Shown: one piece after another, positions 23,146-42,100 of the stretch
Numbering within the stretch: position 1 is the first letter of the stretch
Layout: each line of letters opens with the position of its first letter
Assembly: GCA_964658305.1 (NCBI GenBank)
Contig: OZ210885.1
Coordinates: forward strand, 8,246,001 to 8,310,000
Origin: Leptogorgia sarmentosa
Taxonomy: Eukaryota
DNA: 64,000 nt
Direction of reading: 5' to 3'
Notes under the pieces: generated by a model
The model's input: only the letters and a program-made list of their open reading frames with translations
What the model was told of the DNA's origin: nothing
Database searches by the model: none
Program-made: the position numbers and the translations under genes

Positions 23146-23555
23146 GTAAACCAAACGCAATTCCAACTATTACTTTAACTAATCGACAACAACTATTTTC
23201 TAAAATTGCGAACACCACTCCTCACATTAATTTTATTCTAATAGAAGAAGGTCCCATTAGCCTACGAACTGTATTAAGATATCTACCGACACAAAAACGA
23301 ATAAACAGACTGTCCCTTCATTATTTTTAACTAATGCTTGCCACATTCTGAATAACATAGATGACGTAATACAAAAGTATACAAATTTTTCTTATTTTGC
23401 ACGGTTATATTTTCCGTATTTTACAACTTTTTCAACCCAAACTTTGCAATTAACGCTGTTGTTATGAATTGTACTATTTCGAACTTTTTATGAATTTTGC
23501 CTACTATGCAATTGGTCCATTGAAACGGCTGGAATGCAGCAAAATGAAAATATTC

Positions 23556-23625
23556 TGCGTTGGCGGGGATCGACCCCCGATCTCCCGCGTGGCAGGCGAG
23601 AATTCTACCACTGAACCACCAACGC
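23556..23625 (-). tRNA. tRNA-Gly(GCC), T-arm variant (possible pseudogene)
   Basis: GCGTTGGTGGTTCAGTGGTAGAATTCTCGCCTGCCACGCGGGAG...; T-loop altered with a 1-nt deletion. Confidence 0.7.
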
Positions 23626-23891
23626 AAAGTTGCCCAATTGTTTCGCTATAATGTTCATATTCCACAAGATGCCAAACACCTTCAATTAATAAATCAGGGT
23701 AAGTTCTAAAAAATTGTTACACTTTAAACATGATCAGCAAAATCAATTTTTTTTGGAATATCAAAATCATGTCAACAAAGACTTAAATACCGAAAACACC
23801 AAATTATGGGTAAGAGAGATAGAGCTGGTATAATAGCAATGGTTTTGCTAATTTTTCAAATTGCATTTTTCCCCTTCTCTCGCAAGTATTA

Positions 23892-23963
23892 TTCCCATCC
23901 CGGGAATCGAACCCGTGCCTTGGCGGTGAGAGCGCCAGATCCTGACCACTGGACCACATGGGA
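23892..23963 (-). tRNA. tRNA-Glu(CTC)
   Basis: TCCCATGTGGTCCAGTGGTCAGGATCTGGCGCTCTCACCGCCA...GGTTCGATTCCC...GGGAA. Confidence 0.85.
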
Positions 23964-24059
23964 GAAACATTCATCTTTTCTCGGAATGTGAAAATAACGA
24001 TAATATTTTTAATTTGAATTTCGAAGAAAATTTCGAGAGACAGCGTGGCCAGAAGTGCT

Positions 24060-24132
24060 TGACCTTGAAGTGAGTTGAACACTTAACCTTCTGATCTGGA
24101 GTCAGACGCGCTACCAATTGCGCCACAAGGTC
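24060..24132 (-). tRNA. tRNA-Trp(CCA)
   Basis: GACCTTGTGGCGCAATTGGTAGCGCGTCTGACTCCAGATCAGAAGG...CAAGGTCA. Confidence 0.9.
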
Positions 24133-24376
24133 GTAGCGCTGTTAAAATGGTTTGGTTTCAGAGAACGAGTTTGAGAATGTGAACACAAGCAGCTTCATTT
24201 ATTGATTGCCACGCCCATATGCGCAGTTTTATAACATTTTGTCTATTTTTACAACTGTTGAAAAAATCCCTATCCAATCGAGAAAGTTGTCGGAATTTCG
24301 TACAACTGGCCTCTGATGCTATCGGCAATTAATGCCGTAATTGGATTTATATTCTGAGTTTCAATGGGTAGAATTT

Positions 24377-24449
24377 GCCTCATTAGCTCAGGGGTTAGAG
24401 CACTGGTCTTGTAAACCAGAGGTCCAGAGTTCAAATCTCTGATGAGGCT
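24377..24449 (+). tRNA. tRNA-Thr(TGT)
   Basis: Complete cloverleaf; anticodon arm CTGGT-CTTGTAA-ACCAG. Confidence 0.9.
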
Positions 24450-24687
24450 CAAAGTATCGTTATCAAAAAGTTAGTTTTGAGAATGCGAAATAATCTTCAA
24501 GCAACTCAGAGTACCGCTTACTAGCTTGAAATATATTCCATATTATAAATCAATCAAAGACTAGATGCTAACCTTTTACAAAGAATGAAAACAAGTGAAT
24601 AGTCTTCACTCTCATTTTTAACATTTTGAAACATCACATCAGTGCAGGATGGCAAAGTAATATAATTCTACAGCAAGCTTTTGAGTT

Positions 24688-24741
24688 GCCTCATTAGCTC
24701 AGTGGTTAGAGCACTGGTCTTGTAAACCAGGGGTCCAGAGT
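24688..24741 (+). pseudogene. 3'-truncated tRNA-Thr(TGT)
   Basis: Stops inside the T arm. Confidence 0.8.
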
Positions 24742-24837
24742 GAGTTTATTTCATGAAAACACGTGATAATACGGGAATTTAAGTTCAATTAACTTCGTTA
24801 TTGGATTTACATTCTGAGTTTCAAGGGGGAAGAAGTT

Positions 24838-24922
24838 GCCTCTTTAGCTCAGGGGTTAGAGCACTGGTCTAGTAAAACAGCTAGGAAACCAGGGGTCCAG
24901 AGTTCAAATCTCTGAAGAGGCT
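24838..24922 (+). tRNA. tRNA-Thr(AGT) with a 12-nt intron-like insertion (24875-24886)
   Basis: All four stems perfectly paired; insertion AAACAGCTAGGA between positions 37 and 38. Confidence 0.75.
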
Positions 24923-25060
24923 TTGTGAATAAGTGTTCATCCATTTCCTTTTTTGTAATTGGTTACAACGTATGCAGTTAACTCTCGAAAATGTATGGGA
25001 AGTGTGCCATGAAACAAAATTTTTGAAGTGAAATTATTTTATTAAAAACACGTGATAGTA

Positions 25061-25125
25061 CGGGAATTGGCCCCGGCCCATGGCGGTGAAAACGCCAGAT
25101 CCTAACCACTAAAAACCATATGGGA
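25061..25125 (-). pseudogene. Degenerate tRNA-Glu(TTC)
   Basis: Anticodon arm retained; T arm and 3' acceptor strand damaged. Confidence 0.75.
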
Positions 25126-25170
25126 GTGATAACTTGTTCACTATTCCTGTGCTTCAAAGCCAGTTTAATC

Positions 25171-25241
25171 TGCGTTGGCGGGGAATCGAACCCCGGTCTC
25201 CCGCGTGGCAGGCGAGAATTCTACCACTGAACCACCGACGC
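25171..25241 (-). tRNA. tRNA-Gly(GCC)
   Basis: 71-nt cloverleaf, one acceptor-stem mismatch. Confidence 0.88.
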
Positions 25242-25863
25242 AAAGTTGCCCAATTATTTCGTTTTATAATATAAGCAGGGTAAAATCTGCAACGTGATTG
25301 GCTAATGAGCGTGCATTATAACAGCGTAATGCACGCATCTAGCTATTAAATTTCTCCCGCGACTCTTTGGTTTGACAAAAAGACAATAAAAATACATATA
25401 TACTAAAAATACATCCATAAAAAACGCTTGAATTGTTTGCTTTCGCTCAGCTAAAGGAGTAAAGCTGTGTTGCTGCTTGGCAACATTTGAGAACACGCTT
25501 GATTACATGTAAAGAGAATTGTAATTTTGATCTTCCTAACGAAGTTTTTTGAATCAAAACCGGGCCATAAAGGCATACTCTGTTAAAAGCTCCTTTACCC
25601 AAAAACAAAATCAAGGACTTAAAATCAAGAATTTAAAAAACGATACAAAACTAAAAACAATTATGTACAGTATGAATCAATTTGTGGGCATTATTCCTGA
25701 ATCTTTTGTTGCTGGAATTAATTCTTTATTAATCGTGCCAACACGTAAAAGAGGTTGATATCGGAAAATATTGACTTTACTTTTTTTCCGTTATGGATGA
25801 AATTACGAGTTTTCCCAAAATATGGATAAGAAACATGAACTTTTGAAATTCATATTAACTATC

Positions 25864-25914
25864 GATTTTCGCTTTGGGTGCGAGAGGTCACGGGTTCGAT
25901 TCCCGTGCAAGCCC
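25864..25914 (+). pseudogene. 5'-truncated tRNA-Pro(TGG)
   Basis: Only anticodon arm to 3' end present. Confidence 0.8.
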
Positions 25915-25991
25915 TTATAATTAACCAAGTAAGACGTTGTATTTTTTGAAAGCTTTCGTAAATCCTTAGAAAACCCCACCCAAACACGTCA

Positions 25992-26065
25992 CGTCCCTTG
26001 TTGGACTCGAACCAACAACCTTTCGGTTAACAGCCGAACGTGCTAACCGATTGCGCCACAGAGAC
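25992..26065 (-). tRNA. tRNA-Asn(GTT)
   Basis: GTCTCTGTGGCGCAATCGGTTAG...TTCGGCTGTTAACCGAAAGG...GGGACG. Confidence 0.8.
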
Positions 26066-26232
26066 CGACTCCATTGAAAACCTTCCGAAAAGAAACAAAA
26101 AATACTGGATATTATTTTTGTTCAAAATCTGATTTTTAGCCAAGGCCATATGCAACGGCAACAATAAGTAGAACTTCAACGGTGACGATGCCCGCAATGG
26201 TGATTACAATAGTTTTTGGTGTTTGAAACAGA

Positions 26233-26304
26233 TGCTGTGACCAGGATTCGAACCTGGGTTATTGCGGCCACAACGCAATGTACTAACCACTATACGATCA
26301 CGGC
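26233..26304 (-). tRNA. tRNA-His(GTG)
   Basis: GCCGTGATCGTATAGTGGTTAGTACATTGCGTTGTGGCCGCAA... Confidence 0.85.
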
Positions 26305-26393
26305 GACGTCGTTGGAAGATTGGAAAGTGTTTTGGAACTGCTGGGATATTACATTAATCCCCCATTTTTCTCCGTCATTTTGATACCACCAAT

Positions 26394-26466
26394 GGCTTGC
26401 TGGGTCTAGTGGTATGATTCTCGCTTTGGGTGCGAGAGGTCACGGGTTCGATTCCCGTGCAAGCCC
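26394..26466 (+). tRNA. tRNA-Pro(TGG) with a 1-nt insertion near the D arm
   Basis: CTCGC-TTTGGGT-GCGAG anticodon arm; extra G compared with 31525-31596. Confidence 0.75.
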
Positions 26467-26509
26467 TAGTTAATTAACCAAGTAAGACGTTCTGTTTTTT
26501 GAAAGCTTC

Positions 26510-26583
26510 CGTCCCTGGTTGGACTCGAACCAACAACCTTTCGGTTAACAGCCGAACGCGCCAACCGATTGGACCACAGAGAC
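26510..26583 (-). tRNA. tRNA-Asn(GTT), D-arm mutated
   Basis: Full length; D stem mismatches. Confidence 0.65.
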
Positions 26584-26840
26584 CAACTCAAAAACCTTCC
26601 AAAAAGAAATGTAAAAATAATGGATATTACTATTTAATATAACATACACTCGTGAGTTTTCCGAAAACCGCAAATAGCACTCGTCCTTCGGACTCCAGCT
26701 AGAAGTTGAAAACTTTGCTTATCCAAGAAGTTTCCTGGACAACTTCTTTTTATAACTTTTCTCTTTTTTCTCCTACACCCAAATCATAACCACCCATAAC
26801 ACCAAAATTTTGCTAAATACATTCTGGAAATTTGCTCTTC

Positions 26841-26922
26841 CGTAGTCGGCAGGATTTGAACCTGCGCGGTAATTTCCCAACAGATTTCAAGTCTGTCGCC
26901 TTAACCACTCGGCCACGACTAC
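26841..26922 (-). tRNA. tRNA-Ser(TGA)
   Basis: 82 nt, long variable arm, ACAGA-CTTGAAA-TCTGT. Confidence 0.88.
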
Positions 26923-27132
26923 GTTGGCATTAATCTTGGCTTGCACTTCGAAATGAAAATATCTTCAATCTGCTGGTAAAATCCAACAAAATATTTTAGT
27001 AATCGTTTTCAAGTATTGGTGGATAGATTTAACACGAATCGTAGTATATGCATCTCAACTCTTTGGGTCGCATATTTCCCATCCGCCTGCTTTAAAGAAT
27101 TTGAAAGTTTTCCAGTTTATAGGTAGGTTAAG

Positions 27133-27204
27133 AAGGAGCGGGTGGATTTGAACCACCGACCTCTCGATCTGCAGTCGAATGCTCTACCACTGAGCTACAC
27201 TCCC
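27133..27204 (-). tRNA. tRNA-Cys(GCA)
   Basis: GGGAGTGTAGCTCAGTGGTAGAGCATTCGACTGCAGATCGAGAGG... Confidence 0.9.
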
Positions 27205-27418
27205 TGTGCAGTCTACTAGGTTAATTACGTACATATACTTTCAAACGCAGCTATAATCAATTCACGGACCTCTGTTTTTTCAATTTTACATTCAAATACA
27301 AAATCTTTCTTGGGATGTTTCATAGCCTTAATACAAATAAAAAACGCGACTTCTTTCGGTTGTTTTGTAGATGGAAAACGTAGGCATTGAATCTGTCACT
27401 TTAAACACTCAGCCGCCA

Positions 27419-27818
27419 GCAGAAAAATTTTTTAGGATCACTTCGCGGCTTGGATACCAAGCACTGATCCAATTCTGAATCTATTAAAACAGAAAATATT
27501 GTCTTTTCTTCTTCTTTTAGTTTTCCTAATCCTGGCCCAAACAGTAATTCTGACCCTAACAACAAAATGCTGAGAAAAAAACCCCTTGAAAGAAAGCAAA
27601 CAAAATGACAAATAAACAAAATGAGAAAAAGCCAAGACGCGAGAATCGAAACTACAGGGTCGCTACTGGCGAGTCGTGACCATATCGTCTGAGCTAACGA
27701 AGCTCGAGAAAATTTGGCGGTGAAAACCTTTTATATGAATAGAATGTTGCAATACGTAATGTAAATGAAATGAATGCTTAGTAACCAAGCCACGAAATGA
27801 TCCCAAAAAATTTTCTGC
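27419..27818. mobile_element. MULE-type MITE (same family as 9225-9602)
   Basis: TIRs GCAGAAAA..GGATCA / TGATCC..TTCTGC; 9-bp TSD CAGCCGCCA; empty paralogous sites near 32725-32760 and 44290-44330. Confidence 0.88.
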
Positions 27819-28103
27819 CAGCCGCCACCACCGAGAACACAACTTCCTGTCATCGAGTTTTTCCCCAAAACAATTCATGTTTATCCTCGAGGCCAAAATT
27901 GTAAAGACTTTGCATAACGTAGTCGGCAGGATTTCCACTCGAAACCATTCTATTAGCAATACTTATTTTTTTTCCAAACGTAGTAAAATGGTGGAAAGAT
28001 ATGAAACTTGAACCAAAATATATAGAATGCTACCTACCTGTGCAGGAACATGCCTGAATTTGGCTGAAGCCACATTTTACCTCCAGACAAGGGCGTCAAC
28101 TTT

Positions 28104-28174
28104 GCGTTAGTGGTTCAGTGGTAGAATTCTCGCGTGCCACCCTTGAGACCGAGGCTTGATTGACAGCAAACGCA
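28104..28174 (+). pseudogene. Degenerate tRNA-Gly(GCC)
   Basis: 5' half conserved, 3' half heavily mutated. Confidence 0.75.
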
Positions 28175-28253
28175 GAATGTTTTCAATTTTGTTACATTTC
28201 AATTCGAGAAAAAATGTGGGTTCGTAACAGAGACATGATCTCGAAATTGTAAC

Positions 28254-28325
28254 TCCCATGTGGTCTAGTGGTTAGGATCTGGCGTTTTCACCGCCATGAC
28301 CTGGGTTCGATTCCCGGCGTGGGAA
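28254..28325 (+). tRNA. tRNA-Glu(TTC)
   Basis: TGGCG-TTTTCAC-CGCCA arm; followed by T6 terminator. Confidence 0.87.
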
Positions 28326-28802
28326 TTTTTTCTGAAAATTTCTATTTGGAACAGTTTGTCTTCACATATTCAATCTCGCCCGAGACTGGGATTAGATTCC
28401 CGGCTAACGCAGAATATTATCATTCTGACGAGTTTAAATTTCAAATGCAACACGAGAAAAACGTAGATTTGTAACACAGACATAATCGAAAAATTTTATC
28501 TAGGACAGTAAAATTAATATTTTCTGATATCACCGTCACTTATGAAAACTATTTGATAGCCGCAAACTATTTGATTTTGGACAGAGTTTTTGCATTGGTT
28601 TATAAATCCTTGATTTTTACTCTTTATAATTTTATTGGGGAAATTAGAGAATATCCCTTTAGGAATTAATTTTACAAGCTCCTCTTCGCATTAATTTCGT
28701 TCTTAGATCAATTTGTTTCAATTAACTCTGGATAAAAAAAAGGAAGGCGGAAGAGAAAGGTAATAAAATTCGCAGCATTTTAAAATATTCAAATGTCCAA
28801 AT

Positions 28803-28874
28803 AGTTTCTGCCGAGACTTGAACTCGGATCGCTGGATTCAAAGTCCAAAGTGCTAACCATTACACCACAAAACC
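28803..28874 (-). tRNA. tRNA-Gln(TTG)
   Basis: GGTTTTGTGGTGTAATGGTTAGCACTTTGGACTTTGAATCCAGC...; one acceptor mismatch. Confidence 0.78.
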
Positions 28875-29148
28875 TTAACTCAATTAACTCGTAATTTTAT
28901 CCTGGAAAAAGCGAAAGAGTAAAAATGATGTTTTCTGATATCACCCTCTTTTGGTCGAAGCTATTTGATAACTACCAACTATTTGATCATGGACAGAGTT
29001 TTTGCATTGTATTCTCAATTCTTGATCATTTTTTAACTCTTCTATAATTTTACTTGCCGCTAACTTTTATTATGTTGCATTTCAATTTTAATTGCACGAC
29101 GAGAAAAAACCTGGCTTTGTAACACAGGAATGGTCAACAAGTTATCAC

Positions 29149-29220
29149 TCGCATGTGGTCTAGTGGTTAGGATCTGGCGTTTTCACCGCCATCGCCCGAA
29201 TTCGACTCCCGGCGTGGGAA
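29149..29220 (+). tRNA. tRNA-Glu(TTC), mutated (likely pseudogene)
   Basis: Full length; acceptor and T-stem mismatches, B box altered. Confidence 0.6.
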
Positions 29221-29545
29221 TTTTTTCTGAAAATTTCAATTTGAAGCAGCTGTGTTCACATTCTCAAACTTGTTCTCTGAAACCAAAAATATGCAAATTC
29301 AGAAATTAGCAAAACTATTGGTAATGTATTATCTCTATCCCTCTTACCCATTTTTTTGGAGTTTTCTGTACTTAAGTTCTTGTTGAAATAATCTTGCTTT
29401 TCGACAAAAAATTGATTTTGCTGATCATGTTTAAAGTGAACCAATTTCCTAGAACTTACTCTGATTTATTATTTGAAGGTGTTTGGTGAAAATGTTCGGC
29501 ATCTTGTGGAATATGAACATTATAACGAAAGAATTGGGCAACTTT

Positions 29546-29616
29546 GCGTTGGTGGTTCAGTGGTAGAATTCTCGCCTGCCACGCGGGAGACCGGGGTTCG
29601 ATTCCCCGCTAACGCA
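29546..29616 (+). tRNA. tRNA-Gly(GCC)
   Basis: Intact 71-nt cloverleaf. Confidence 0.92.
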
Positions 29617-30044
29617 GATTATTATCATTTCTTGCATTTCGGTTTGGGTTGCAACTCGAGAAAAAGCGTGGCTTTGTAACACAGACATAATCTCATAATT
29701 TTCTCCATAATAGAGGAATGTAAAATTAATATTTTCTGATATCACCCTCTTTTAGCTAAAACTGTTTGATAGCCACAAACTATGTCATCATGGACAGAGT
29801 TTTTGCATTGGTTTCCAAATTCTTGATTATATTCCAATCGTTTCTAATTTTACTCATTAAAGAGCTTCTATAATAGATATCACTTTTGTAACTAAAATAA
29901 GAAGTTCACCTTCGCATCAATTGTTCTTCCTCGATGAATGATTTTTTTTTCAACTAACTGTGACTTGCAAAAAGGACATTGTAAGAGAAACGTAATGAAA
30001 TGCGCTACCTTATGCAATGTTTCCAATGCATAGTTGAGTCTACT

Positions 30045-30116
30045 AGGTTCTGCCGAGACTTGAACTCGGATAGATGGATTCAAATTCCAAAGTGCTAACC
30101 ATTACACCACAGAAAC
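30045..30116 (-). tRNA. tRNA-Gln(TTG), mutated
   Basis: Full length; several substitutions relative to 37653-37724. Confidence 0.6.
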
Positions 30117-30241
30117 TTAACACGATAATATAAATTTTCCGAATTGTTTAACGTTTCTTCTTTCTGTAACACAGAAAGGCATCTCTTTAAACAATGTCGA
30201 TGTTTACTAAAAGGAAATTATATCGGTCAGGATGTCACGTA

Positions 30242-30323
30242 GGTAGCGTGGCCGAGTGGTCTAAGGCGCTGGTTTAAGGCGCCAGTCATTTCGATGGCGT
30301 GGGTTCGAATCCCACCGCTGCCA
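30242..30323 (+). tRNA. tRNA-Leu(AAG)
   Basis: GGTAGCGTGGCCGAGTGGTCTAAGGCGCTGGTTTAAGGCGCCAG...CCGCTGCCA. Confidence 0.92.
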
Positions 30324-30810
30324 AATTTTCGTTGTTCTTGCACGTTGTGGTTGATTCAGCTCACATAAGTTTCACAAGCTGACGCTTCTTATCCATATTT
30401 TGGGAAAACTCATAATTTCATCCATAACGGAAAAAAAGTAAAATTCTCAACTCTTGAAAATTTTTCACTTTTTTATCATTTTTCCTGTTAAAGAGCTTCC
30501 ATAAACGAGTATATATCGCTTTAGCACTACACGAAATGTATGCAAACCCACAATTTCACCGTCGAAAACGCTAACAAGATAATACAAAAATAACATAAAC
30601 ACAGTATTTCTGGTGACCATTCAAATTTCCCAATGGTATTGAAATCGTTTGATTTTAACTGGGATTATAGAAAAATTGTAATAAAATAATGTGTACCCTT
30701 TTCACGTATTTGGGTCAGGTAAATTCTCAAGGGAAAGAATCAGAGCGGGATGTGGCATGTTGAAGGTAGCAAAGAATAAAAGTGGTAGCAAATTCCATGT
30801 TTTCATGCGT

Positions 30811-31208
30811 GTCAGGATGGCCGGATCGGCGTTAGATCATAGTCAGCGTAGGAACATATCCGAGACTGCTTTATATGTCGGTCAGCGGTGATAGAAATTT
30901 CTATTCGCGTATTCACAAAATAAACAAGTCCCAAACCATAAATCTGACCCTAACCTTTGGTTATGGTTTGGGACTGGTGATTAGGGTCAGATTTATGGGA
31001 CTGGTTATTTTGTGAATACGCCAATAGAAATTTCTATCACCGCTGACCGACATATAAAGCAGTCTCGCATATGTTCCTACCCTGACTATGATCTAACGCC
31101 GATCGGATGGCCGAGCGGGCTAAGGCGCCAGACTCAAGTGCAAAAATTTGTCACGATCAACCTTGACGTAATAGGGTGTTCTGGTCCACACATGTGGTCG
31201 TGGGTTCG
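30811..31208 (+). pseudogene. Intron-containing tRNA-Leu(CAA) disrupted by a MITE and 3'-truncated
   Basis: GTCAGGATGGCCG, then insertion, then GGATGGCCGAGCGG...CCAGACTCAAG, intron, TTCTGG...GGGTTCG. Confidence 0.85.
30824..31104. mobile_element. Foldback MITE with 9-bp TSD (MULE-like)
   Basis: TIRs GATCGGCGTTAGATCATAGTCAG (~100 bp arms); TSD GGATGGCCG at 30815-30823 and 31105-31113. Confidence 0.9.
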
Positions 31209-31524
31209 CAAAACATATAGAAAGTTTCGGAGATGTGAATCGATGCAACAAAAAATATGAAGCAAGTTAAATACCATGCAGGTCCAAGCCAGATTTAAAC
31301 TGAGGTCTTTCCAGTGTGAGACGCATGCAGTAACCAGTGCACTACACGAAATGTATAGCAATCCCTAAATTTCACCGAAGAATCTAGAAAACGCTAACAA
31401 GATAAAATAAAAAATAACAAAAACACAGTATTTCCGATTACCATTCAAATTTCCCATTGGTATTACAATCGTTTGATTTTAACTGGGATTATAGAAAAAT
31501 ACGTCTTACTTGGGTAATTAACTA

Positions 31525-31596
31525 GGGCTTGCACGGGAATCGAACCCGTGACCTCTCGCACCCAAAGCGAGAATCATACCACTAGACCAGCAAGCC
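31525..31596 (-). tRNA. tRNA-Pro(TGG)
   Basis: Intact 72-nt cloverleaf. Confidence 0.92.
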
Positions 31597-31707
31597 ATTG
31601 ATTTTATGAAAATGTTTTCTAATGTACCTTGTACTGACGGAGAAAAATGGGGGATTAATGTAATGTCTCAGCCGTTCCAAAACATTTTCCAATCTTCCAG
31701 CGAAGTC

Positions 31708-31779
31708 GCTGTGATCGTATAGTGGTTAGTACATTGCGTTGTGGCCGCAATAACCCAGGTTCGAATCCTGGTCACGGCA
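31708..31779 (+). tRNA. tRNA-His(GTG)
   Basis: Intact cloverleaf. Confidence 0.9.
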
Positions 31780-31945
31780 TCTGATTCAAACAGCCAAAGT
31801 ATTGTAATTACGATTGCGGATATCGTCACGGTTGAAGTTCTTTTTATTTTTGTCGTTGGATGATGCCTTGAGAAAAAATCAGATTTTGACCAAAAATAAA
31901 ACCATTATTTTTATATTTCTCTTCGGAAGGTTTTCATTGGAGTCG

Positions 31946-31951
31946 GTCTCT

Positions 31952-31995
<44 letters not shown>

Positions 31996-32019
31996 TTGGT
32001 TCGAGTCCAACCAGGGACG
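31946..32019 (+). tRNA. tRNA-Asn(GTT)
   Basis: Intact 74-nt cloverleaf. Confidence 0.92.
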
Positions 32020-32141
32020 TGTTTGGTGTGATGTTATTCAGACGTCGTGATGGTAAATGTAACCGATTTTTTTGCGCGGGGTTTTCTAAGGAATTATGAA
32101 AGTTTTCAAAAGAGAGAACATCTTACTTGGTTAATTAACTA

Positions 32142-32213
32142 GGGCTTGCACGGGAATCGAACCCATGACCTCTCGCACCCAAAGCAAGAATCATACCACT
32201 AGACCAGCAAGCC
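32142..32213 (-). tRNA. tRNA-Pro(TGG)
   Basis: Full length, two C-to-T changes giving G-U pairs. Confidence 0.82.
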
Positions 32214-32560
32214 ATTGATTGTATCAAATTGTTCTCTAATGTACTTTGTACTGACGAAGAAAAATGTGGGATTAATGTATAATATCTCAGGCGTTGCAAC
32301 TCGATGAGAGGAGATTCTGTTCTCGACGGAAAGAAGTTACATGATGACACATGCCGTGAATGAGTTTGTATTTAAATGCAAAATTGACAAAACAGAGGTA
32401 ATGAAAGAATTGATACTTTTCGTGAAGGTATATGTAGGTAATTAACCTAGGTTAACAGTTAATTCGACTGCAGATCGAGAGGTCGGTGTTGTCACACCCA
32501 TAAACTGGAAATCTTCAAAATTCTTGAATTATTCATTTCGAAATACATGGCAATGCCAAC

Positions 32561-32642
32561 GTAGTCGTGGCCGAGTGGTTAAGGCGACAGACTCGAAATC
32601 TGTTGGGAAATTCCCGCGCAGGTTCAAATCCTGCCGACTACG
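32561..32642 (+). tRNA. tRNA-Ser(CGA)
   Basis: ACAGA-CTCGAAA-TCTGT; intact. Confidence 0.92.
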
Positions 32643-33250
32643 TTATGCAAAGTCTTCAACATTTTCGTCTCGAATTCAAACACGATTTTTTTGGGGGAAA
32701 AACTGGATGAGAGGAAGTTGTGTTCTCGGTGGTGGTGGCTGGGAGTTTAAAGTGACAGATTCAATGTCCAAGTTTTCCATCTAGAAAAATAAAGGAAAGA
32801 AGTCCCGTTTTATTGTATTAAGGTTTTGAAACATGCCAACAATGAGTTTCTATTTGTGTTGCAATTGAAATTGAAATGCAACAAAATCAAAATATTCTGG
32901 GTTTGAAGTTCTTGGAAATTGTTTCACTTTAAACATGATCAGCAAAATATTTTTTTTTTTGGAAAAGCAAAATCATGACAACAAAGACTTAAATAGAGAA
33001 AACACTAAAAGATTTGGTATGAGGGATATGATGAAAGTCAGAATATAAATCCATTACGAAGTTAATTAAACGTAATTTCCTCTATTATCACGTGTTTTTG
33101 ATGAAATAAATTCTGTTCAAAAATTTTGTTTCAGGTCACACTTTTCATACAATCATGACAGTTAACTTGTCTTAACAGCCGAAAGCCCTAACCGATTGCG
33201 CCACAGAGGCTGACACCCTTCGGAAAACTTTCGGGGGAAAAATATAAAAA

Positions 33251-34550
33251 TAGGTACACAAAGTGTAAATGTATCTGCGCCTATGTAGCTTGGTTACCAG
33301 CGATGTATAAAATGATTTATTGCTAGGGAACAGGCGAATAGCGCAAATACTTATTTATTTTTTTGACGTGAGGTTGTGCATGGTTAAGACGTGAGACGTA
33401 CTCAATACTTGATATAAGCTTACATGACTTCTCGCATTCCGGAATTCGCGCGATTCATATCAAATTGCATAATGAATTTAAACTTGACGAAATATGATAT
33501 CGCATTTTATGCTATTGCATCCTTAATAGACAGCGCTTTGCGATTGTTTGTGAAAAATGTAGCTTTCTATAAACCAAATTTACTCTTTTCAAAACCATAT
33601 TATAATAATATATTTATATGCGCTATATTCTATCCATTCATGCAGCATTTGCCTAGACGGTCAAGTGTATGGTCGGTATGCGCGTAGATTCAAAATACGT
33701 ATAATAGTTATATATGATTTCGTTTCTTTTGTCTCGCGCTTAACAAACGCGTTTTATTACAAGCTACAAAATCTATTTTCCTGGGATTGAATGTTTCAAC
33801 CATTCTGTATGGCGAAGCGTCAAAATATAGTAGATATTCCGTGATCACAATGACAACGCGTGCAGTCCAAACATGTACAAATGTGTCACTGTGTCAGTGC
33901 CGGACACGCTAAAGTATCGTAGGGAAAATATACGAGTAATTTTGTCAAGACATAAACCTCTTTCAATCGAAACGTGTATAATATTCGCTCATTTCGCTGT
34001 GTGTTTAAGGTAATACAATGTATAATTTGCGTCATGATATTTCTGCTTTGATGATCTAAATTCCGTAGCAAACCTCTTTAATATCTTTAAAAGCAATGCC
34101 AATGTATAATTTGCGTCGTGATATTTTTGCGTATCTGCGTATAAGTCTGCGGCACGCAGTGTCTCATTTCTATCCTACTTTTGATATCCAAACAACCCGT
34201 AAAACCAGCTGTAATTCTGTCATGTTTACACTTACCAGATCAAGATAGGTCTCCGTATAAAATGGCGACAAAAGTAGGATAGAAATGAGAAAAAAGTGCA
34301 ATATTTTAAACGATTTACCAAGCAAGCTTCGAAGTTCGGAGTATTTGCAAATGGCGGGACATCAGAATTCAGAATCGACATGCGAAAAGCGCTGCTCTGA
34401 TTGGCTACAAGCTAACAGCTAGAAGCTCTGATTGGCTAGAAGCTAACAGCACGAAGCTCTGGTTGGCTACAGGCACGGTTACAGTTACAGTTACAGTTAC
34501 AGCTAACAACACGATAGCAATATATCTGCGTCACTACGTCACGCAGATAC
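33251..34550 (-). mobile_element. Full-length DINE-1/HINE-like non-autonomous Helentron
   Basis: On minus strand: TTTTTGTATCTGCG hairpin, (TGTAAC)4 microsatellite, internal ~31-bp tandem repeats, 3' CGCAGATACA plus TACAC-TTT-GTGTA stem-loop; inserted in a T run without TSD; empty site at ~43820-43845. Confidence 0.8.
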
Positions 34551-34685
34551 AAAAACAATGGACACTATTTTTGGCCAAAATCTGATTTTTTGCCAAGGCC
34601 ACATTGAACGGCAATAAGAAACAGAACTTCAACGGTGACGATGACCGCAATGGTGATTACAATAATCTTTGGTGTTTGAAACAGA

Positions 34686-34757
34686 TGCCGTGACCTGGAT
34701 TCGAACCTGGGTTATTGCGGCCACAACGCAATGTACTAACCACTATACGATCACGGC
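34686..34757 (-). tRNA. tRNA-His(GTG)
   Basis: Full length, one T-stem mismatch. Confidence 0.8.
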
Positions 34758-34883
34758 GACGTCGCTGCAAAATTGGAAATGTTTTGGAACGGCTGAGATA
34801 TTACATTAGTCCCATCTTTTTCTTCGTCAGTACAAAGTACATTAGAGAACAATTTGTTACCATCAATGGCTTGCTGGTCTAGT

Positions 34884-35548
34884 CATAGGTAGCCCAACGC
34901 ACGCATGACGTAACATTCAGTAGTATAATATGACAAGGTTGGCAAGTAAACAATAATATGACTCGTTACCGCTTAAAATCAGGCGAAAAAATCAACCTCT
35001 TACGAACAAACTTCGCTAAAAAATAGCAGCCCCTACTTCTAAGATAGTATTACTAAATATATACAACGTTTTTTGGCAACAAAACATGTGAAAAAGTCGA
35101 AAAAATACGAAAAGTTTCTCTTAATTTGCCGTGTCTCGATGCTGGATGCCTGTTGCCGTGCAAAAATTGCCGTTTGAAATGACGAATACGCGATCCTATT
35201 GGTTATAAATAAACCGACAAAACAGCCCACCAATAGGATTGCGTATTCGTTATTTCAAACGGCAATTTTTGCACGGCAACAGGCATCCAGCATCGAGACA
35301 CGGCAAATTAAGAGAAACTTTTCGTATTTTTTCGACTTTTTCACATGTTTTGTTGCCAAAAAACGTTGTATATATTTAGTAATACTATCTTAGAAGTAGG
35401 GGCTGCTATTTTTTATCGAAGTTTGTTCGTAAGAGGTTGATTATTTCGCCTTGTTTTAAGCGGTAGCGAGTCATATTATTGTTTACTTGCCAACCTTGTC
35501 ATATTATACTACTGAATGTTACGTCATGCGTGCGTTGGGCTACCTATG
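34884..35548. mobile_element. P-like foldback MITE inserted in the A box of a tRNA-Pro 5' fragment
   Basis: 665-bp near-perfect palindrome, termini CATAGGTAGCCC / GGGCTACCTATG; 7-bp TSD GTCTAGT (34877-34883, 35549-35555). Confidence 0.9.
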
Positions 35549-35572
35549 GTCTAGTGGTAAAATAAATGTTTC

Positions 35573-35648
35573 TCCCATGTAGTCTAGTGAGTGCTCCGGA
35601 TCTGGCGCTCTCACCACCAAGGCCTGGGTTCTATTCCCGGCATGGGAA
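35573..35648 (+). pseudogene. Degenerate tRNA-Glu(CTC)
   Basis: D-loop insertion and B-box mutation. Confidence 0.75.
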
Positions 35649-35806
35649 TAATACTTGCAAGAGACGGAAAACAAACGTGCAATTCCAGAAATTAGCAAAA
35701 CTATTGCTATTATACTAGCCCATGATTTATTATTTGAAGATGTTTGATGAAAATGTTCGGCATTTTGTGAAATATGAACATTATAACGAAAGAATTGGGC
35801 TACTTT

Positions 35807-35877
35807 GCGTTGGTGGTTCAGTGGTAGAATTCTCGCCTGCCACACGGGAGACCGGGGTTCGATTCCACGCTAACGCA
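35807..35877 (+). tRNA. tRNA-Gly(GCC), two stem mismatches
   Basis: Full length. Confidence 0.72.
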
Positions 35878-35967
35878 GATTATTTTCATTTTGTTGCATT
35901 TTAATTTCAACAGCAACGTGAGAAACAAACTGGCTTTGTAACACAAGAATAGTCAACAAGTTATCAC

Positions 35968-36033
35968 TCCCATGTGGTCTAGTGGTTAGGATCTGGCGTT
36001 TTCACCGCCATGGCCAGGGTTCGATTCCTGGCA
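35968..36033 (+). pseudogene. tRNA-Glu(TTC) lacking the 3' acceptor strand
   Basis: Ends after the T arm. Confidence 0.78.
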
Positions 36034-36123
36034 TTTTCCGAAAAATTCATTTTGAAGCAGCTTGTGTTCACATTTTCATGATCAAACTCGTTCTCTGAAA
36101 CCAAACCATTTTAACAGCGCTAC

Positions 36124-36196
36124 GACCTTGTGGCGCAATTGGTAGCGCGTCTGACTCCAGATCAGAAGGTTAAGTGTTCAATTCACTTCAAGGTCA
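36124..36196 (+). tRNA. tRNA-Trp(CCA)
   Basis: Intact cloverleaf. Confidence 0.9.
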
Positions 36197-36345
36197 AGCA
36201 CTTCTGGCCACGCTGTCTGTCGAAATTTCTTCAAATTCAAATTAAAAATATTATCGCTATTTTCACATTCCGAGAAAAGATAAATGTTTTTCCCATGTGG
36301 TCCAGTGGTCAGCATCTGGCGCTCTCGAAAAGATTAGATAACTTT

Positions 36346-36416
36346 GCGTTGGTGTTTCAGTGGTAGAATTCTCGCCTGCCACGCGGGAGACCGGGGTTCG
36401 ATTCCCCGCTAACGCA
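36346..36416 (+). tRNA. tRNA-Gly(GCC)
   Basis: Full length, G10T in the A box; preceded by a Glu(CTC) 5' half at 36291-36326. Confidence 0.75.
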
Positions 36417-36466
36417 GATTATTTTCATTTTTTCATCCATTTTATTCCCAAGCAACCTTGGGCCTA

Positions 36467-36715
36467 CAATCATATTCATAAGTAGTTGGGACACCAATGG
36501 TCTTAGGACATCAGTGGTATTGTGCGAATAATTAAAAGCCATAATAACACCCCTCCCCCACCCCATTCAATATTGTTTTTCCAATACATACATGATTGTA
36601 CGTAAAAACCAAGTGGCAACTATAACACAACATTGCATTGGGGGCAAGGGGGATTAACGATTCAGAAAATGATGCGTATTTGTGGAATCTGTCCCAACAC
36701 ATCTAAAAGTGATTG
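36467..36715. mobile_element. Tc1/mariner-type MITE
   Basis: TA|CAATCA...GTTGGGACA and TGTCCCAAC...TGATTG|TA; TA TSD. Confidence 0.7.
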
Positions 36716-36803
36716 TACGTCCCACGCGGTCACCTCAGAGTGTAGGTCAGTTGGAGATGTGAATGTTTAGTTCAACAACGCGAAACTTGTTGGTTGTAGC
36801 AAC

Positions 36804-36885
36804 GTAGTCGTGGCCGAGCGGTTAAGGTGACAGACTAGAAATCTGTTGGGAGTTTCCCGCGCAGGTTCAAATTCTGCCAACTACG
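36804..36885 (+). tRNA. tRNA-Ser(AGA)
   Basis: ACAGA-CTAGAAA-TCTGT; a few mismatches. Confidence 0.75.
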
Positions 36886-37178
36886 TTATGCAACGTCTTC
36901 AACATTTTGGCCTCGAATGTAAACACGATTTTTTGGTGAAAAAACTCTAGGAGAGGAAGTTCTGTTCTCGGTGGTGGTGGCTGATTGTATAAAGCACAGA
37001 TTCAAGGTCCACGTTTTCCATCCACAAAATCAACGGAAAGAAGTCGCGTTTTTTATTGAATTAAGCTTAATATGAAACATGCCAAGAAAGATTTTGTATT
37101 TGAAAGAACAGAGGTCCGTGAATTGATGATAGCTGCGTTTGAAAGTATATGTAGGTAATTAACCTAGTCGAGTACGCA

Positions 37179-37250
37179 GGGAGTGTAGCTCAGTGGTAGA
37201 GCATTCGACTGCAGATCGAGAGGTCGGTGGTTCAAACCCGCCCACTCCTT
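37179..37250 (+). tRNA. tRNA-Cys(GCA)
   Basis: Intact, followed by T run. Confidence 0.9.
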
Positions 37251-37461
37251 TTTATCTTAGCTATAAACTGGAAAACTTTCAAATTCAATAAAGGGGCCTG
37301 AAGGGAAATATACCACCCACATACTAAGATTCGTGTTAAATATATCCACTAATACTTGAAAACGATTAGTCCTGCTGTTAATTACTAAAATATTTTGTTG
37401 GATTTTACTGCAAGATTGAAGATTTATTCATTTCGAAGTGCAAGCCAATACTAATGCCAAT

Positions 37462-37551
37462 GTAGTCGTGGCCGAGTGGCCGAGTGGTTAAGGCGACAGA
37501 CTTGAAATCTCTTTGGAAATTCCCGCGCTGGTTCAAATCCTGCCGACTACG
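37462..37551 (+). pseudogene. tRNA-Ser(TGA) with an 8-bp duplication in the A box
   Basis: GGCCGAGT GGCCGAGT (37470-37485) plus stem mismatches. Confidence 0.8.
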
Positions 37552-37652
37552 GAAAGGCAAATTTTCAATATTTTTTCTAGAATGTAGCTATTTGGCAAAA
37601 GGAAGAGGAAGGAACGTGAAACAATTGGGAAACATTGTCACGATCGTGTTAA

Positions 37653-37724
37653 GGTTCTGTGGTGTAGTGGTTAGCACTTTGGACTTTGAATCCAGCGATA
37701 CGAGTTCAAGTATCGGCAGAGCCT
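37653..37724 (+). tRNA. tRNA-Gln(TTG)
   Basis: Full length; T-stem mismatches. Confidence 0.72.
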
Positions 37725-37991
37725 ATTTTAGACATTACATTTGATTTAATTTTTTACAATGCAGCGAATTGTATTACCTTTCTCTTCCACCATTCATTTG
37801 GCAATTCAGAGTTAATTGAAACAAATTGATCCAAGAACAAAATTAATGTGAAGGTGAACTTGATAATTTAATTACTAAAGGAATACTCGTATTAGACTCT
37901 CGTCAGTTCTCGAAAGAAAATCAGAACGGGATGTGGCACGTTGAAAGTAGCAAAGAATAAATGTGGTAGGAAATTCCATGTTTTCATGTGT

Positions 37992-38115
37992 GTCAGTATG
38001 GCTGAGCGGTCTAAGGCGCCAGACTCAAGTGCAAAAACTTGTCACGATCAACCTTGACATAATAGGGCGTTCTGGTCCACACATGTGGTCGTGGGTTCGA
38101 ATCCCGCTCCTGACA
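37992..38115 (+). tRNA. Intron-containing tRNA-Leu(CAA); 40-nt intron 38030-38069
   Basis: CCAGA-CTCAAG-[TGCAAAAAC...ATAGGGCG]-T-TCTGG; a few substitutions. Confidence 0.8.
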
Positions 38116-38237
38116 ACAAATTTACAAAATTATTGAGAACATTTCTTTTCAGAGCTGGTCTATTTACACAAATTCGATATCACCAAGAAATGTTTCTGGT
38201 TTTTACTGAAAAATTCCAATGAAAAAATTCATATGTA

Positions 38238-38310
38238 TGTTTCCGCCCAGGTTCGAACTGAGGACCTTGCACGTGTTAAGCGCATGTGATAATCACTACA
38301 CTACGGAAAC
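38238..38310 (-). tRNA. tRNA-Val(AAC)
   Basis: GTTTCCGTAGTGTAGTG...TTAACAC...CGGAAACA. Confidence 0.75.
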
Positions 38311-38424
38311 TGACATATGCGCGGAGATATAGAAATAGATGTATTCACTTTAATGAATTTTTTTCGTTTTTTATTGAAAAATTCCAATGAAAAAAATATC
38401 TGCAGTTAAAAAAGCTCATTTGTA

Positions 38425-38497
38425 TGTTTCCGCTCAGGTTCGAACTGAGGACCTTGCGCGTGTTAAGCGCATGTGATAACCAATACACTACGGAAAC
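38425..38497 (-). tRNA. tRNA-Val(AAC)
   Basis: Full length. Confidence 0.8.
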
Positions 38498-38953
38498 GAA
38501 TTGGAAGAAAATTACGAGACAAAGTTTCGGAGATGTGAATCGATGCAACAAAAAATATGAAGCAAGTTAAAGGCCATGCAGGTCCAAGCCAGATTTAAAC
38601 TGGGGTCCTTCCAGTGTGAGACGCATGCAGTGACCAGTGCCCTACACGAAATGTATAGCAATCCCTCAATTTCACCGTCGAAAACGCTAACAAGATAATA
38701 CAAAAATAACATAAACACATGCAGAACTTCCGGTGACCATTCGAATTTCCCAATGGCATTAAAATCGTTCGATTGTAACTGAGAATCGTTTGATTTTAAC
38801 TGGGATTATAGAAAAAATTATAATAAAATAATGTGTACCTCTTTCACGTATTTGGGTCAGGTAAATTCTCAAGGGAAGGAATTAGAACGAGGAGTGGCAT
38901 GTTGAAGGTATCAAAGAATTAAATGTGGTAGGAAATTTCGTGTTTTCATGCGT

Positions 38954-39077
38954 GTCAGGATGGCCGAGCGGTCTAAGGCGCCAGACTTAAGTGCAAAAAC
39001 TTGTCACGATCAACCTTGACATAATAGGGCGTTCTGGTCCACACATGTGGTCGTGGGTTCGAATCCCACTCCTGACA
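38954..39077 (+). tRNA. Intron-containing tRNA-Leu with TAA anticodon
   Basis: Same body and 40-nt intron as the Leu(CAA) copies, but anticodon TAA at 38988-38990; stems intact. Confidence 0.85.
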
Positions 39078-39221
39078 ACAAATTAACAAAAAAATTGAAA
39101 ACATTTCTTTTAAAAGCTGATCTATTTAAAAAAAAATCGATATCATCAAGGACATTTTTCTGGTTTTTTACTGAAAAATTCCAAAGAAAAAAACATCTCC
39201 ATTTAAAAAAGCTCATATGTA

Positions 39222-39294
39222 TGTTTCCGCCCAGGTTCGAACTGGAGACATTGCGCGTGTGTGGCGCACGTGATAGCCACTGCACTACAGAAAC
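39222..39294 (-). pseudogene. tRNA-Val(CAC), U33 lost
   Basis: Loop CA-CAC-AC; several substitutions. Confidence 0.7.
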
Positions 39295-39459
39295 GAATTG
39301 GAAGAAAATTACAAAACAGAGACAAAGTTTCGGAGATGTGAACATTTCTTTTCAGAGCTGATCGATTTACACAAATTCGATATCACGAAGAAAATGTTTC
39401 TGGTTTTTACTGAAAAATTCCAATGAAAAAAATTTCCCCATTTAAAAAAAGCTCATGTA

Positions 39460-39532
39460 TGTTTCCGCCCAGGTTCGAACTGAGGACCTTGCGCGTGTTA
39501 AGCGCATGTGATAACCACAACACTACGGAAAC
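39460..39532 (-). tRNA. tRNA-Val(AAC)
   Basis: Full length. Confidence 0.8.
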
Positions 39533-39643
39533 TGGCATATGCGCAAATATATGGAAATATATGTATTCACTTTAGTCAATTTTTCAGCTTTTTTACTGGA
39601 AATTTTAAAAAAAAGTATCTCCATTTAAATAAGCTCATTTGAA

Positions 39644-39716
39644 TGTTTCCGCCCAGGTTCGAACTGAGGACCTTGCGCGTGTTAAGCGCATGTGATAACC
39701 ATTACACTACGGAAAC
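39644..39716 (-). tRNA. tRNA-Val(AAC)
   Basis: Full length. Confidence 0.85.
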
Positions 39717-39830
39717 TGACCTATGCGCAAACATATAGAATTGGATGTATTCACTTTAATTAATTTTTTCGTTTTTTATTGGAAAATTTGCAAAGAAAAA
39801 AATAGCTGCAGTTAAAAAAGCTCATATGTA

Positions 39831-39903
39831 TGTTTCCGCCGAGGACTGAACTGGGGACCTTGCGTTTGTAAGGCGCACGTGATAACCACTACACTACGGC
39901 AGC
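39831..39903 (-). pseudogene. Degenerate tRNA-Val(TAC)
   Basis: Loop CT-TAC-AA; T arm and acceptor mutated. Confidence 0.7.
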
Positions 39904-40423
39904 GAATTGGAAGGAAATTATAAAACAGAGACAAAGTTTGGGAGATGTGAATCGATGCAACAAAAAGTATGAAGCAAGTTAAAGGCCATGTAGGTCCAAG
40001 CCAGATTTAAACTGAGGTCTTTCCAGTGTGAGACGCATGCAGTAACCATTGCACTACACAAAATGTATAGCAATCCCTCAATTTCACCGTCGAAAACGCT
40101 AACAAGATAATACAAAAATAACATGAACACAGTATTTCTGGTGACCATTTAAAGTGCAACACGGGAATCAACATAAACGCATTATTCCTATGACGATTGA
40201 AAATTTGCAATGGTATTAAAATCGTTCGATTTTAACTGCGATTGATTGAAAAAATTCCAATAAAATAATGTGTGCCTCTGTCACGTAAATTGATTTTGCT
40301 GGTCATGTTTAAAGTGTAACAATTTCCTAGAACTTACTCTGATTTATTATTTGAAGATGTTTGGTGAAAATGGTCGGCATCTTGTGGAATATGAACATTA
40401 TTATGAAAGTATTGGGCAACTTC

Positions 40424-40494
40424 GCGTTGGTGGTTCAGTGGTAGAATTCTCGCCTGCCACGCGGGAGACCGGAGTTCGATTCCCCGCTAACGCA
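40424..40494 (+). tRNA. tRNA-Gly(GCC)
   Basis: Full length, one T-stem mismatch. Confidence 0.82.
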
Positions 40495-40584
40495 GATTAT
40501 TTTCATTTTGTTGCATTTCAATTTCAACTGCAACACGAGAAACAAACTGGCTTTGTAACACAGAAATAGTCAACAAGTTATCAC

Positions 40585-40656
40585 TCCCATGTGGTCTAGT
40601 GGTTAGGATCAGGCGTTTTCACAGCCATGGCCCGGGTTCGATTCCCGGCGTGGGAA
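40585..40656 (+). tRNA. tRNA-Glu(TTC), anticodon stem mismatches
   Basis: Full length. Confidence 0.68.
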
Positions 40657-40742
40657 CTTTATCTGAAAATTTCAAACTGAAGCAGCTTGTGTTCACATTT
40701 TCATACTCGTTCACTGAAATCAAACCATTTTAACAGCGCGAC

Positions 40743-40823
40743 GACCCTGTGGCCCAATTGATAGCATGTCTGACTCCAGATCTCCAGATCAGAAGGTTAA
40801 GTGTTCAATTCACTTCAAGGTCA
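40743..40823 (+). pseudogene. tRNA-Trp(CCA) with an 8-nt duplication in the anticodon loop
   Basis: CTCCAGAT CTCCAGAT; D arm mutated. Confidence 0.8.
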
Positions 40824-40919
40824 AGGACTTCTGGCCACGCTGTCTCTCGAAATATTTTTCGAAATTCAAATTAAAAATATTATCGTTATTTTCACATTCC
40901 GAGAAAAGATAAATGTTTT

Positions 40920-40991
40920 TCCCATGTAGTCCAGTGGTCACGATCTGGCGCTCTCACCGCGAGGGCCCGGGTTCGATTACCGGCATGGGAA
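40920..40991 (+). tRNA. tRNA-Glu(CTC), mutated
   Basis: Full length with several mismatches. Confidence 0.6.
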
Positions 40992-41449: not shown

Positions 41450-41522
41450 GCCTCATTAGCTCAGGGGTTAGAGCACTGATTTTGTAAACCAGGGGTCCAG
41501 AGTTCAAATCTCTGATGAGGCT
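41450..41522 (+). tRNA. tRNA-Thr(TGT), anticodon stem mismatch
   Basis: Full length; Thr fragments follow at ~41677-41721 (CGT, 3' half) and 41932-41984 (AGT, 5' part). Confidence 0.7.
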
Positions 41523-42028: not shown

Positions 42029-42100
42029 TTCCCACGCCGGGAATCGAACCCGCGCCATAGCGGTGAAAACGCCAGATCTTAACCACTAGACAACATGGGA
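42029..42100 (-). tRNA. tRNA-Glu(TTC), mutated
   Basis: Full length with mismatches; followed by a 5'-truncated Gly at 42185-42236. Confidence 0.62.

Follow-up and report, generated by a model that had tools for sequence, protein, structure and literature searches.

Introns in eukaryotic tRNA genes lie between positions 37 and 38, and nucleotide N32 pairs with the antepenultimate base of the intron within a bulge-helix-loop (PMC10275265). The TSEN endonuclease reads the mature body of the tRNA and is described as having no sequence preference (PMC10539383, PMC10485636), and a distance of 6 nt from the proximal pair to the exon end is among the published determinants of cleavage (PMC10275265, PMC6614914, PMC10539383). 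In the structure of human TSEN, a 4-bp A-form helix starts at C32 and is accompanied by a 3-nt bulge (PMC10539383). Work with fly and human reporters indicated that a strong proximal pair is needed without being sufficient and that extra helix pairs, or full pairing of the helix, reduce splicing without abolishing it (PMC6614914). The survey in PMC4090602 gives a range of 6 to 133 nt for intron length, takes lone short insertions in the D or T arm as marks of pseudogenes, and reports that intron-bearing and intronless genes of one isodecoder often differ in origin. Metazoan introns are described as prevalent in Tyr-GUA, Ile-UAU, Leu-CAA, and Arg-UCU and as essentially absent from other tRNAs (PMC12530127). 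Orthologous tRNA groups of primates and flies are reported almost never to differ in intron state, and rapid pseudogenisation of tRNA copies is presented as the norm (PMC4981973). The idea has also been put forward that weakly conserved tRNA introns are tolerated neutrally, with the machinery being kept for Tyr, Ile, and Leu (PMC12168002).

The gain of an intron at the canonical position is treated in PMC4090602 as an open question, by a route that is hard to imagine; the authors offer a speculative combination of cleavage and reverse transcription, and the single mention of tandem duplication in that paper concerns the origin of tRNA itself. The yeast gains described there (Ala-UGC of Lachancea thermotolerans and Gly-UCC of Kluyveromyces lactis) are late events in isotypes that are intronless in relatives, and their source is unknown, the proposal being anticodon cleavage, untemplated extension, and reverse transcription. 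In a targeted literature search, which covered few subscription or older papers, duplication-born tRNA introns were proposed in no title or abstract opening. For spliceosomal introns, a model put forward by Rogers in 1989 reportedly explains gain by tandem duplication of a segment containing a proto-splice site.

Here we confirmed that a 12-bp tandem duplication, with two differences between its units, is present in a tRNA-Thr(AGT) gene at 24838-24922 of the window, by which we mean the whole 64,000-nucleotide stretch that was analysed. As in the model of Rogers, both junctions come from one duplication, and the mature RNA is predicted to be unaltered; unlike in that model, the signal is an RNA shape (a palindromic loop plus a ruler) and not a pair of GT-AG motifs. 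The locus resembles the yeast gains in that the isotype is intronless in relatives and the gain appears late, but the source of this candidate intron is visible as a tandem duplication at the DNA level. The locus illustrates a simpler route of gain than cleavage and reverse transcription, with the source sequence still readable. Its value lies in this mechanism, a one-step intron gain through a duplicated palindromic anticodon loop.

The tRNA-Thr(AGT) gene and its duplicated segment

The gene (24838..24922, + strand) was recovered by ARAGORN and by Rfam (RF00005, 56.9 bits), and at 85 nt it is 12 nt longer than the intronless Thr paralogues. From tRNA numbering and pairing, the predicted 5' exon (positions 1-37) lies at 24838..24874 (+), with the anticodon AGT at 24871-24873, and the predicted 3' exon (positions 38-73) lies at 24887..24922 (+). 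Comparison with intronless Thr copies places between them a 12-nt insertion, the predicted intron, at 24875..24886 (+); its length is within the 6- to 133-nt range given in PMC4090602. Repeat unit 1 (CTAGTAAAACAG; 24869..24880, +) represents tRNA positions 32-43 with one change, and repeat unit 2 (CTAGGAAACCAG; 24881..24892, +) likewise carries one change. The AGT paralogue at 41932..41974 (+), which is intronless and truncated, has the single unit CTAGTAAACCAG at 41963-41974, from which each of the two units differs at one base (11/12 match). Both differences between the units, at 24877 and 24885, fall inside the insertion. Because the duplicated segment spans positions 37-38, the insertion can formally be placed at 37/38 with both exons intact, and taking out 24875-24886 gives a 73-nt cloverleaf. 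The earlier note on this DNA had described a tandemly duplicated anticodon-loop unit amounting to a 12-nt insertion at the canonical 37/38 site, and this description holds. It had also named the sequence at 41932 as a paralogue with one copy of the unit; the single unit is there, but the sequence is a fragment matching positions 1-43 only and not a full paralogue.

A 12+12 tandem with at most two mismatches appeared in 21 of 20000 shuffles of the gene; Tandem Repeats Finder, run at score 30, did not list the duplication. The 12 nt could in principle be an old or imported intron that merely resembles a duplication, as might be proposed from the frequent difference in origin within mixed isodecoders (PMC4090602). 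This explanation is close to refuted: each unit matches the single unit of the paralogue at 11 of 12 positions, the local family of intronless Thr genes accounts for the exons and for both flanks, and Thr introns are described as essentially absent in animals (PMC12530127).

The remainder of the gene has the appearance of an ordinary Thr copy. Positions 8-19 (24845..24856, +), which we take to be the A box, are identical to the same region of the full-length Thr paralogues of the window, and positions 53-61 (24902..24910, +) fit what we assume to be the consensus pattern of the B box. The predicted 5' exon differs from the AGT paralogue solely at position 6, where T6 (24843) pairs with A67 (24916), a base that is rare among the Thr copies of four sequencing runs. 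The first run of at least four T, a run of six at 24949..24954 (+) located 26 nt past the gene, is a likely Pol III terminator. A scan for bacterial promoters and terminators, a method that does not apply to Pol III genes, found nothing. Marks of a pseudogene are missing, with 0 broken pairs, an intact B box, and full length.

The 5' flank (24739..24837, +) is common to the AGT paralogue (24739-24881 against 41838-41975, 88.8% over 143 nt), and the 3' flank (24923..25066, +) is a multicopy Thr spacer, which is 75.8% identical to 41685-41872 and occurs in many contigs of the four runs. Five other Thr pieces are present in the window, and none has an insertion where the site is covered. Two truncated Thr pieces on the + strand sit on the spacer of the candidate, namely, the 5' part of a TGT copy at 24688-24741 and the 3' part of a CGT-type copy at 41672-41721. 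These pieces point to repeated rearrangement of what looks like a Thr gene-plus-spacer unit.

Predicted fold and its origin in the duplication

All 21 stem pairs of the tRNA body are Watson-Crick pairs (acceptor, 7/7; D, 4/4; anticodon, 5/5; T, 5/5). When the acceptor, D, and T stems were enforced, the minimum-energy fold was the canonical register, with -31.8 kcal/mol and a probability of 0.64 in the constrained ensemble. In this fold, the anticodon loop pairs with the insertion as C32:G(-3), U33:A(-4), A34:U(-5), G35:C(-6), and U36:G(-7), that is, four Watson-Crick pairs and one G-U with a 6-nt loop, and G(-2), A(-1), and A38 form a predicted 3-nt bulge at the 3' junction. The proximal pair C32:G(-3), which is C24869:G24884 in the window, has a predicted pair probability of 0.96-0.99, and the 3' strand of the helix (24880-24884) is supplied by the first bases of repeat unit 2. 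A register slipped by one base has a share of 0.21 in the same ensemble. With the change at 24885, the probability of the U31:A39 pair drops from 0.97 to 0.73.

ARAGORN reads the gene with a long variable loop and calls no intron even when introns are allowed; this reading was rejected (-19.4 versus -31.8 kcal/mol; probability of about 0). The minimum-energy fold obtained without constraints is a rod and not a cloverleaf (z, -3.54). An intact paralogue folds into the same rod, which is therefore uninformative on the Thr(AGT) copy. The anticodon-intron helix still forms in the unconstrained fold, with probabilities of 0.95-0.99.

The folding reproduces the perfectly paired acceptor, D, and T stems and the anticodon-intron pair with a 3-nt bulge that the earlier note had seen, and its assertion that this is the geometry recognised by TSEN agrees with published determinants in the C32-antepenultimate pair, the 3-nt bulge, and the 4-bp helix. 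Like canonical introns removed by TSEN2/15/34/54 and RTCB (PMC10275265, PMC10539383), the insertion is short, lies at 37/38, and combines a pair of C32 with the antepenultimate G, a 4-bp helix, a 3-nt bulge, and an intact body. It is unlike canonical animal introns in its Thr isotype, which lies outside Tyr-GUA, Ile-UAU, Leu-CAA, and Arg-UCU; that Thr tRNAs are normally intronless in animals, as had also been claimed, is in line with PMC12530127. It further differs in that most copies lack the intron, which occurs in a small minority of them, in that the helix is fully paired, and in that the intron can still be recognised as duplicated sequence from the adjacent exon; splicing of the Thr precursor is a prediction. 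The inference of a new, spliceable intron drawn in the earlier note is partly supported; the note had not remarked on four other short insertions in the array or on the lowered splicing of fully paired helices in reporters (PMC6614914).

We consider it somewhat probable that the insertion is a neutral proto-intron that is splice competent, since TSEN would likely cut the transcript if the gene is transcribed and many redundant Thr copies exist. The duplication across positions 37-38 itself supplies the insertion and leaves the exons whole, and in silico the second CTAG pairs with C32-G35 of the first, giving the C:G pair, the 4-bp helix, the 3' bulge, and an open loop at the 5' junction. Judging from the literature on TSEN, the enzyme would measure from the intact body and cut after A37 and before A38, and RTCB would join the exons into a normal tRNA-Thr(AGU); full pairing of the helix would probably make the process less efficient. 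We therefore expect splicing, if the gene is transcribed, to be accurate but possibly inefficient. The duplication itself would have come about by slippage or repair in a fast birth-and-death array and would have drifted unselected since, acquiring the two changes that now separate its units; one of these makes the splice-site register slightly weaker. If the precursor is spliced, the locus would provide an intron in an isotype essentially without introns in animals and would fit the idea of neutral tolerance of weakly conserved introns (PMC12168002).

The same fold also allows a less favourable outcome. The pre-tRNA may be a poor substrate for TSEN, given the helix pairs and the slipped register, and the duplication could be an inactivating lesion, with the precursor being misspliced owing to the tight helix or the slipped register and then degraded, which would make the gene a young pseudogene like its neighbours. 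The reduced splicing seen in fly and human reporters when the helix is extended or pairs completely (PMC6614914) and the slipped fraction of 0.21 speak for this, as do the view that lone short D- or T-arm insertions mark pseudogenes (PMC4090602) and the reported speed of pseudogenisation (PMC4981973). Against it, the gene is predicted to display every known structural determinant, albeit with a fully paired helix, 0 of 21 body pairs are broken, its 4-bp helix begins at C32 as in the human TSEN structure (PMC10539383), and in the reporters splicing was reduced and not lost (PMC6614914). We regard a lesion as rather unlikely; if the precursor is not spliced, the gene merely adds to the damaged copies of a decaying array.

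The ease with which duplication produces such a fold was assessed by simulating, for 16 array genes, all possible tandem duplications with a length of 6-20 nt (n = 15075). In this set, 23% of the duplications equalled an insertion at 37/38, 7% gave a C:G or G:C proximal pair, and 3.4% gave a 4-bp helix. With the exons of the Thr(AGT) gene (n = 915), the numbers were 220 (24%) at 37/38, 187 (20%) with a C:G pair, and 128 (14%) with a 4-bp helix. The C:G pair was obtained at 18-20% in Thr and Ser genes and at 0-3% in Asn, Trp, Cys, Gly, His, Pro, Glu, and Gln genes. The rates for the Thr(AGT) gene are high because the last intron bases are then a copy of positions 35-37 and because CTAG can pair with itself, and any duplication covering positions 32-37 in a gene with a CTAG loop yields the geometry. 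The geometry is hence a by-product and no evidence of function or selection. On paper, one duplication event is enough to create a full TSEN-type site in a Thr or Ser gene.

It is tempting to generalise from this, and we tentatively propose that canonical introns can arise in one step when a tandem duplication spans a palindromic anticodon loop and that the Thr(AGT) copy would be a living example that is transcribed, spliced by TSEN into a normal tRNA, and common to two related octocorals; taken as a whole, we hold this to be doubtful. Were it true, genes with C32 and G35 (Thr and Ser) would be much more prone to intron gain than Asn, Trp, Gly, His, Glu, and Gln genes, and many such proto-introns would be expected in large animal tRNA arrays. 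Rare Thr introns may already be annotated in animal genomes, for instance in GtRNAdb.

The duplication in independent sequencing runs

The region 24500-25300 was partly present in 20 of 24 listed runs, none of which contained more than 43% of its words, and among the RNA runs none contained more than 8%. Contigs of four DNA or unlabelled runs (X1, X2, X5, and X6) were compared over 24869-25108, from repeat unit 1 onwards. Among the contigs listed, one from X6 covers 24869-24947 without a gap, with 4 other letters and a depth of 7.3; for an intronless copy, 12 mismatches would be required in the duplicated part. X6 is an independent run from 2016 with species label B; the runs with the largest shares of the region carry label A. 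The rule for a bridge was 31 letters, and the contig has only 19 left of the unit junction. It stops fitting past 24947 and may represent another allele or locus. In X1, X2, and X5, no contig spanning the repeat was found among the 32 listed of 438 pieces.

Repeat unit 1 was covered in all four runs, with a depth amounting to 3.3-6.9% of that over the shared 3' half. The base at 24916 is T in nearly all contigs, and A67 made up 1.6%, 2.4%, 0%, and 0.4% of the depth in the four runs; the 0% is that of X5 and is not proof of absence, and contig depth is not a copy number. In X6, the A67 remainder is as large as the depth of the supporting contig. For two of the runs (X5 and X6), Thr contigs without the duplication were clipped at 24886, and their loose ends before this position are ordinary intronless Thr 5' halves. 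Together, these contigs indicate a large intronless Thr family with a rare variant that appears to exist outside this assembly.

An error of assembly or consensus might be suspected in an array as repetitive as this one, particularly as all listed contigs fall short of the whole stretch and the supporting contig reaches so little beyond the junction. It is nevertheless very improbable, because a gap-free contig covers both units in an independent run with another species label; furthermore, two sites distinguish the units from one another and from all other Thr pieces of the window.

A scan of metagenomes for Thr family genes with a 4- to 30-nt insertion gave 0 matches, and a scan of prokaryotic genomes likewise gave 0; both collections hold little coral DNA, so that these blanks carry no weight. 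With the 3' half of the family as the query, the metagenome collection yielded one locus (L001), an intronless Thr(TGT) gene with unrelated flanks.

The question then arises of whether the inserted copy is conserved. The location of both unit differences inside the insertion has a P value of 0.018 when the whole 85-nt gene is considered and 0.24 when only the duplicated 24 nt are considered. Compared with the nearest paralogues, the exons differ only in the compensated pair T6:A67, a T:A combination that L001, an unrelated Thr gene, shows at 6:67 as well. At 9 of 138 sites in the 3' flank, the window departs from the base supported by most of the contig depth in X1, and at this rate 4.8 changes would be expected in the exons; the probability of 0 uncompensated changes is 0.009, and that of at most 2 changes is 0.15. 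These clean exons do not prove selection, because the divergence of the flank may be older than the duplication and because gene conversion, as we infer, can keep exons alike. In addition, the change at 24885 weakens U31:A39 and is therefore not what selection for splicing would favour.

These data bear on a further explanation, in which an established, transcribed and spliced Thr(AGT) subfamily, marked by T6:A67 and with exons under purifying selection, would predate the divergence of at least two related octocorals. The gap-free contig from a label B run set beside label A runs with the largest shares, the depth on unit 1 in all four runs, the exons that stayed clean while the flank and the insertion changed, and the compensated 6:67 pair with its T:A counterpart in L001 are all consistent with such a subfamily. 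Conversely, the duplication occurs in only one of the contigs listed, and depth does not translate into copies; A67 is absent in one of four runs; ordinary copies in the array are equally intact in 22 of 46 cases; and the metagenome scan for inserted Thr genes was blank, albeit in a collection with only one match to the family 3' half. The signs of conservation are compatible with neutrality, and a subfamily of this kind has a minority chance and is in our opinion improbable. As intronless copies are abundant, the insertion is likely neutral.

The surrounding tRNA array

The Thr(AGT) gene belongs to a mixed tRNA array of 22 kb (23555..45441), in which a BLAST survey with 13 reference genes identified 68 tRNA-derived pieces, 52 full-length and 16 partial. 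Other methods gave 47 genes (ARAGORN) and 51 matches (Rfam); octocoral tRNA counts are given nowhere in the main text of PMC11803306. For scoring, 52 copies were used, with two full Leu intron genes left out and one Ser and one Asn partial copy included. Indels of at least 4 nt were absent from 46 of the 52 scored copies, and among these 46, all pairs and the B box were intact in 22 and a pair or the B box was broken in 24. The intact stems of the Thr(AGT) copy are weak evidence, because 22 of 46 copies are equally intact.

Six of the 52 copies contain larger indels, comprising insertions in Thr (12 nt), Glu (4 nt), Ser (8 nt), Trp (8 nt), and Pro (7 nt) copies and a 6-nt deletion in a His copy. 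Three of the five insertions of 4-12 nt are in anticodon arms, an excess that is not significant (P = 0.086 at a rate of 0.233). The array thus holds, Thr(AGT) aside, four short in-gene insertions, two of which are in anticodon arms with no good anticodon-intron pair. One is a perfect 8-bp duplication of positions 32-39 in a Trp(CCA) copy (40743-40823, +), which equals an insertion at 37/38. In this copy, C faces C where the proximal pair should form, three body pairs are broken, and the case lends some support to the explanation of the Thr duplication as a lesion. The other is a 7-nt insertion in the anticodon arm of a Pro copy (43497-43575, -) with an intact body, in which the anticodon is altered and the proximal pair is only U:G. 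If cut at 37/38, this copy would yield a tRNA that combines a Pro body and the Leu anticodon TAA. The remaining copies all have broken pairs: 8 bp are duplicated in the D arm of the Ser copy (37462-37551, +) and 4 bp in the D loop of the Glu copy (35573-35648, +), and the His copy (43113-43178, -) has the 6-bp deletion. Short in-gene duplications therefore recur in the array, and the Thr copy is the one with good geometry. Like the tRNA pseudogenes of birth-and-death clusters (PMC4981973), it sits among many copies in an array rich in truncated or mutated genes, several of which have short insertions; unlike such pseudogenes, it has no broken stem, an intact B box, and a terminator, and its lesion could in principle be removed by an enzyme.

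Leu(CAA)-type genes with a genuine intron of ~40 nt are found in the same array at 37992-38115, 38954-39077, and, as a partial copy, 31107-31208 (all +), which suggests that the host has the splicing pathway. When this intron was examined as a possible duplication, the best 12-mer match was 8/12 over many offsets. ARAGORN mislabels these genes as Ala. The copy at 38954 has the anticodon TAA, an apparent switch from CAA to TAA with the intron kept.

Other repeats are present in and around the array. An element of ~670 bp occurs twice, at 22472-23147 and 34884-35550, with self-matches on both strands of 88-90%, and is likely a non-autonomous inverted-repeat transposon. Just past the array, 45739-49422 contains a tandem segmental duplication of ~1.6 kb with 91.7% identity. 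Reading frames at 9780-11659 (+) have the look of a tyrosine-recombinase-type element, an impression from the translation alone.

Two protein-coding genes flank the array. The gene at 17778-20796 (+) is LDL receptor related and has a named relative in Dendronephthya (69% identity). An Apaf-1-like NB-ARC gene at 56888-59712 (+) has named relatives in Dendronephthya, Paramuricea, and Xenia (53-61%), and many of its next matches are cyanobacterial, at about 40% identity. These relatives of the flanking frames likely put the host among the octocorals.
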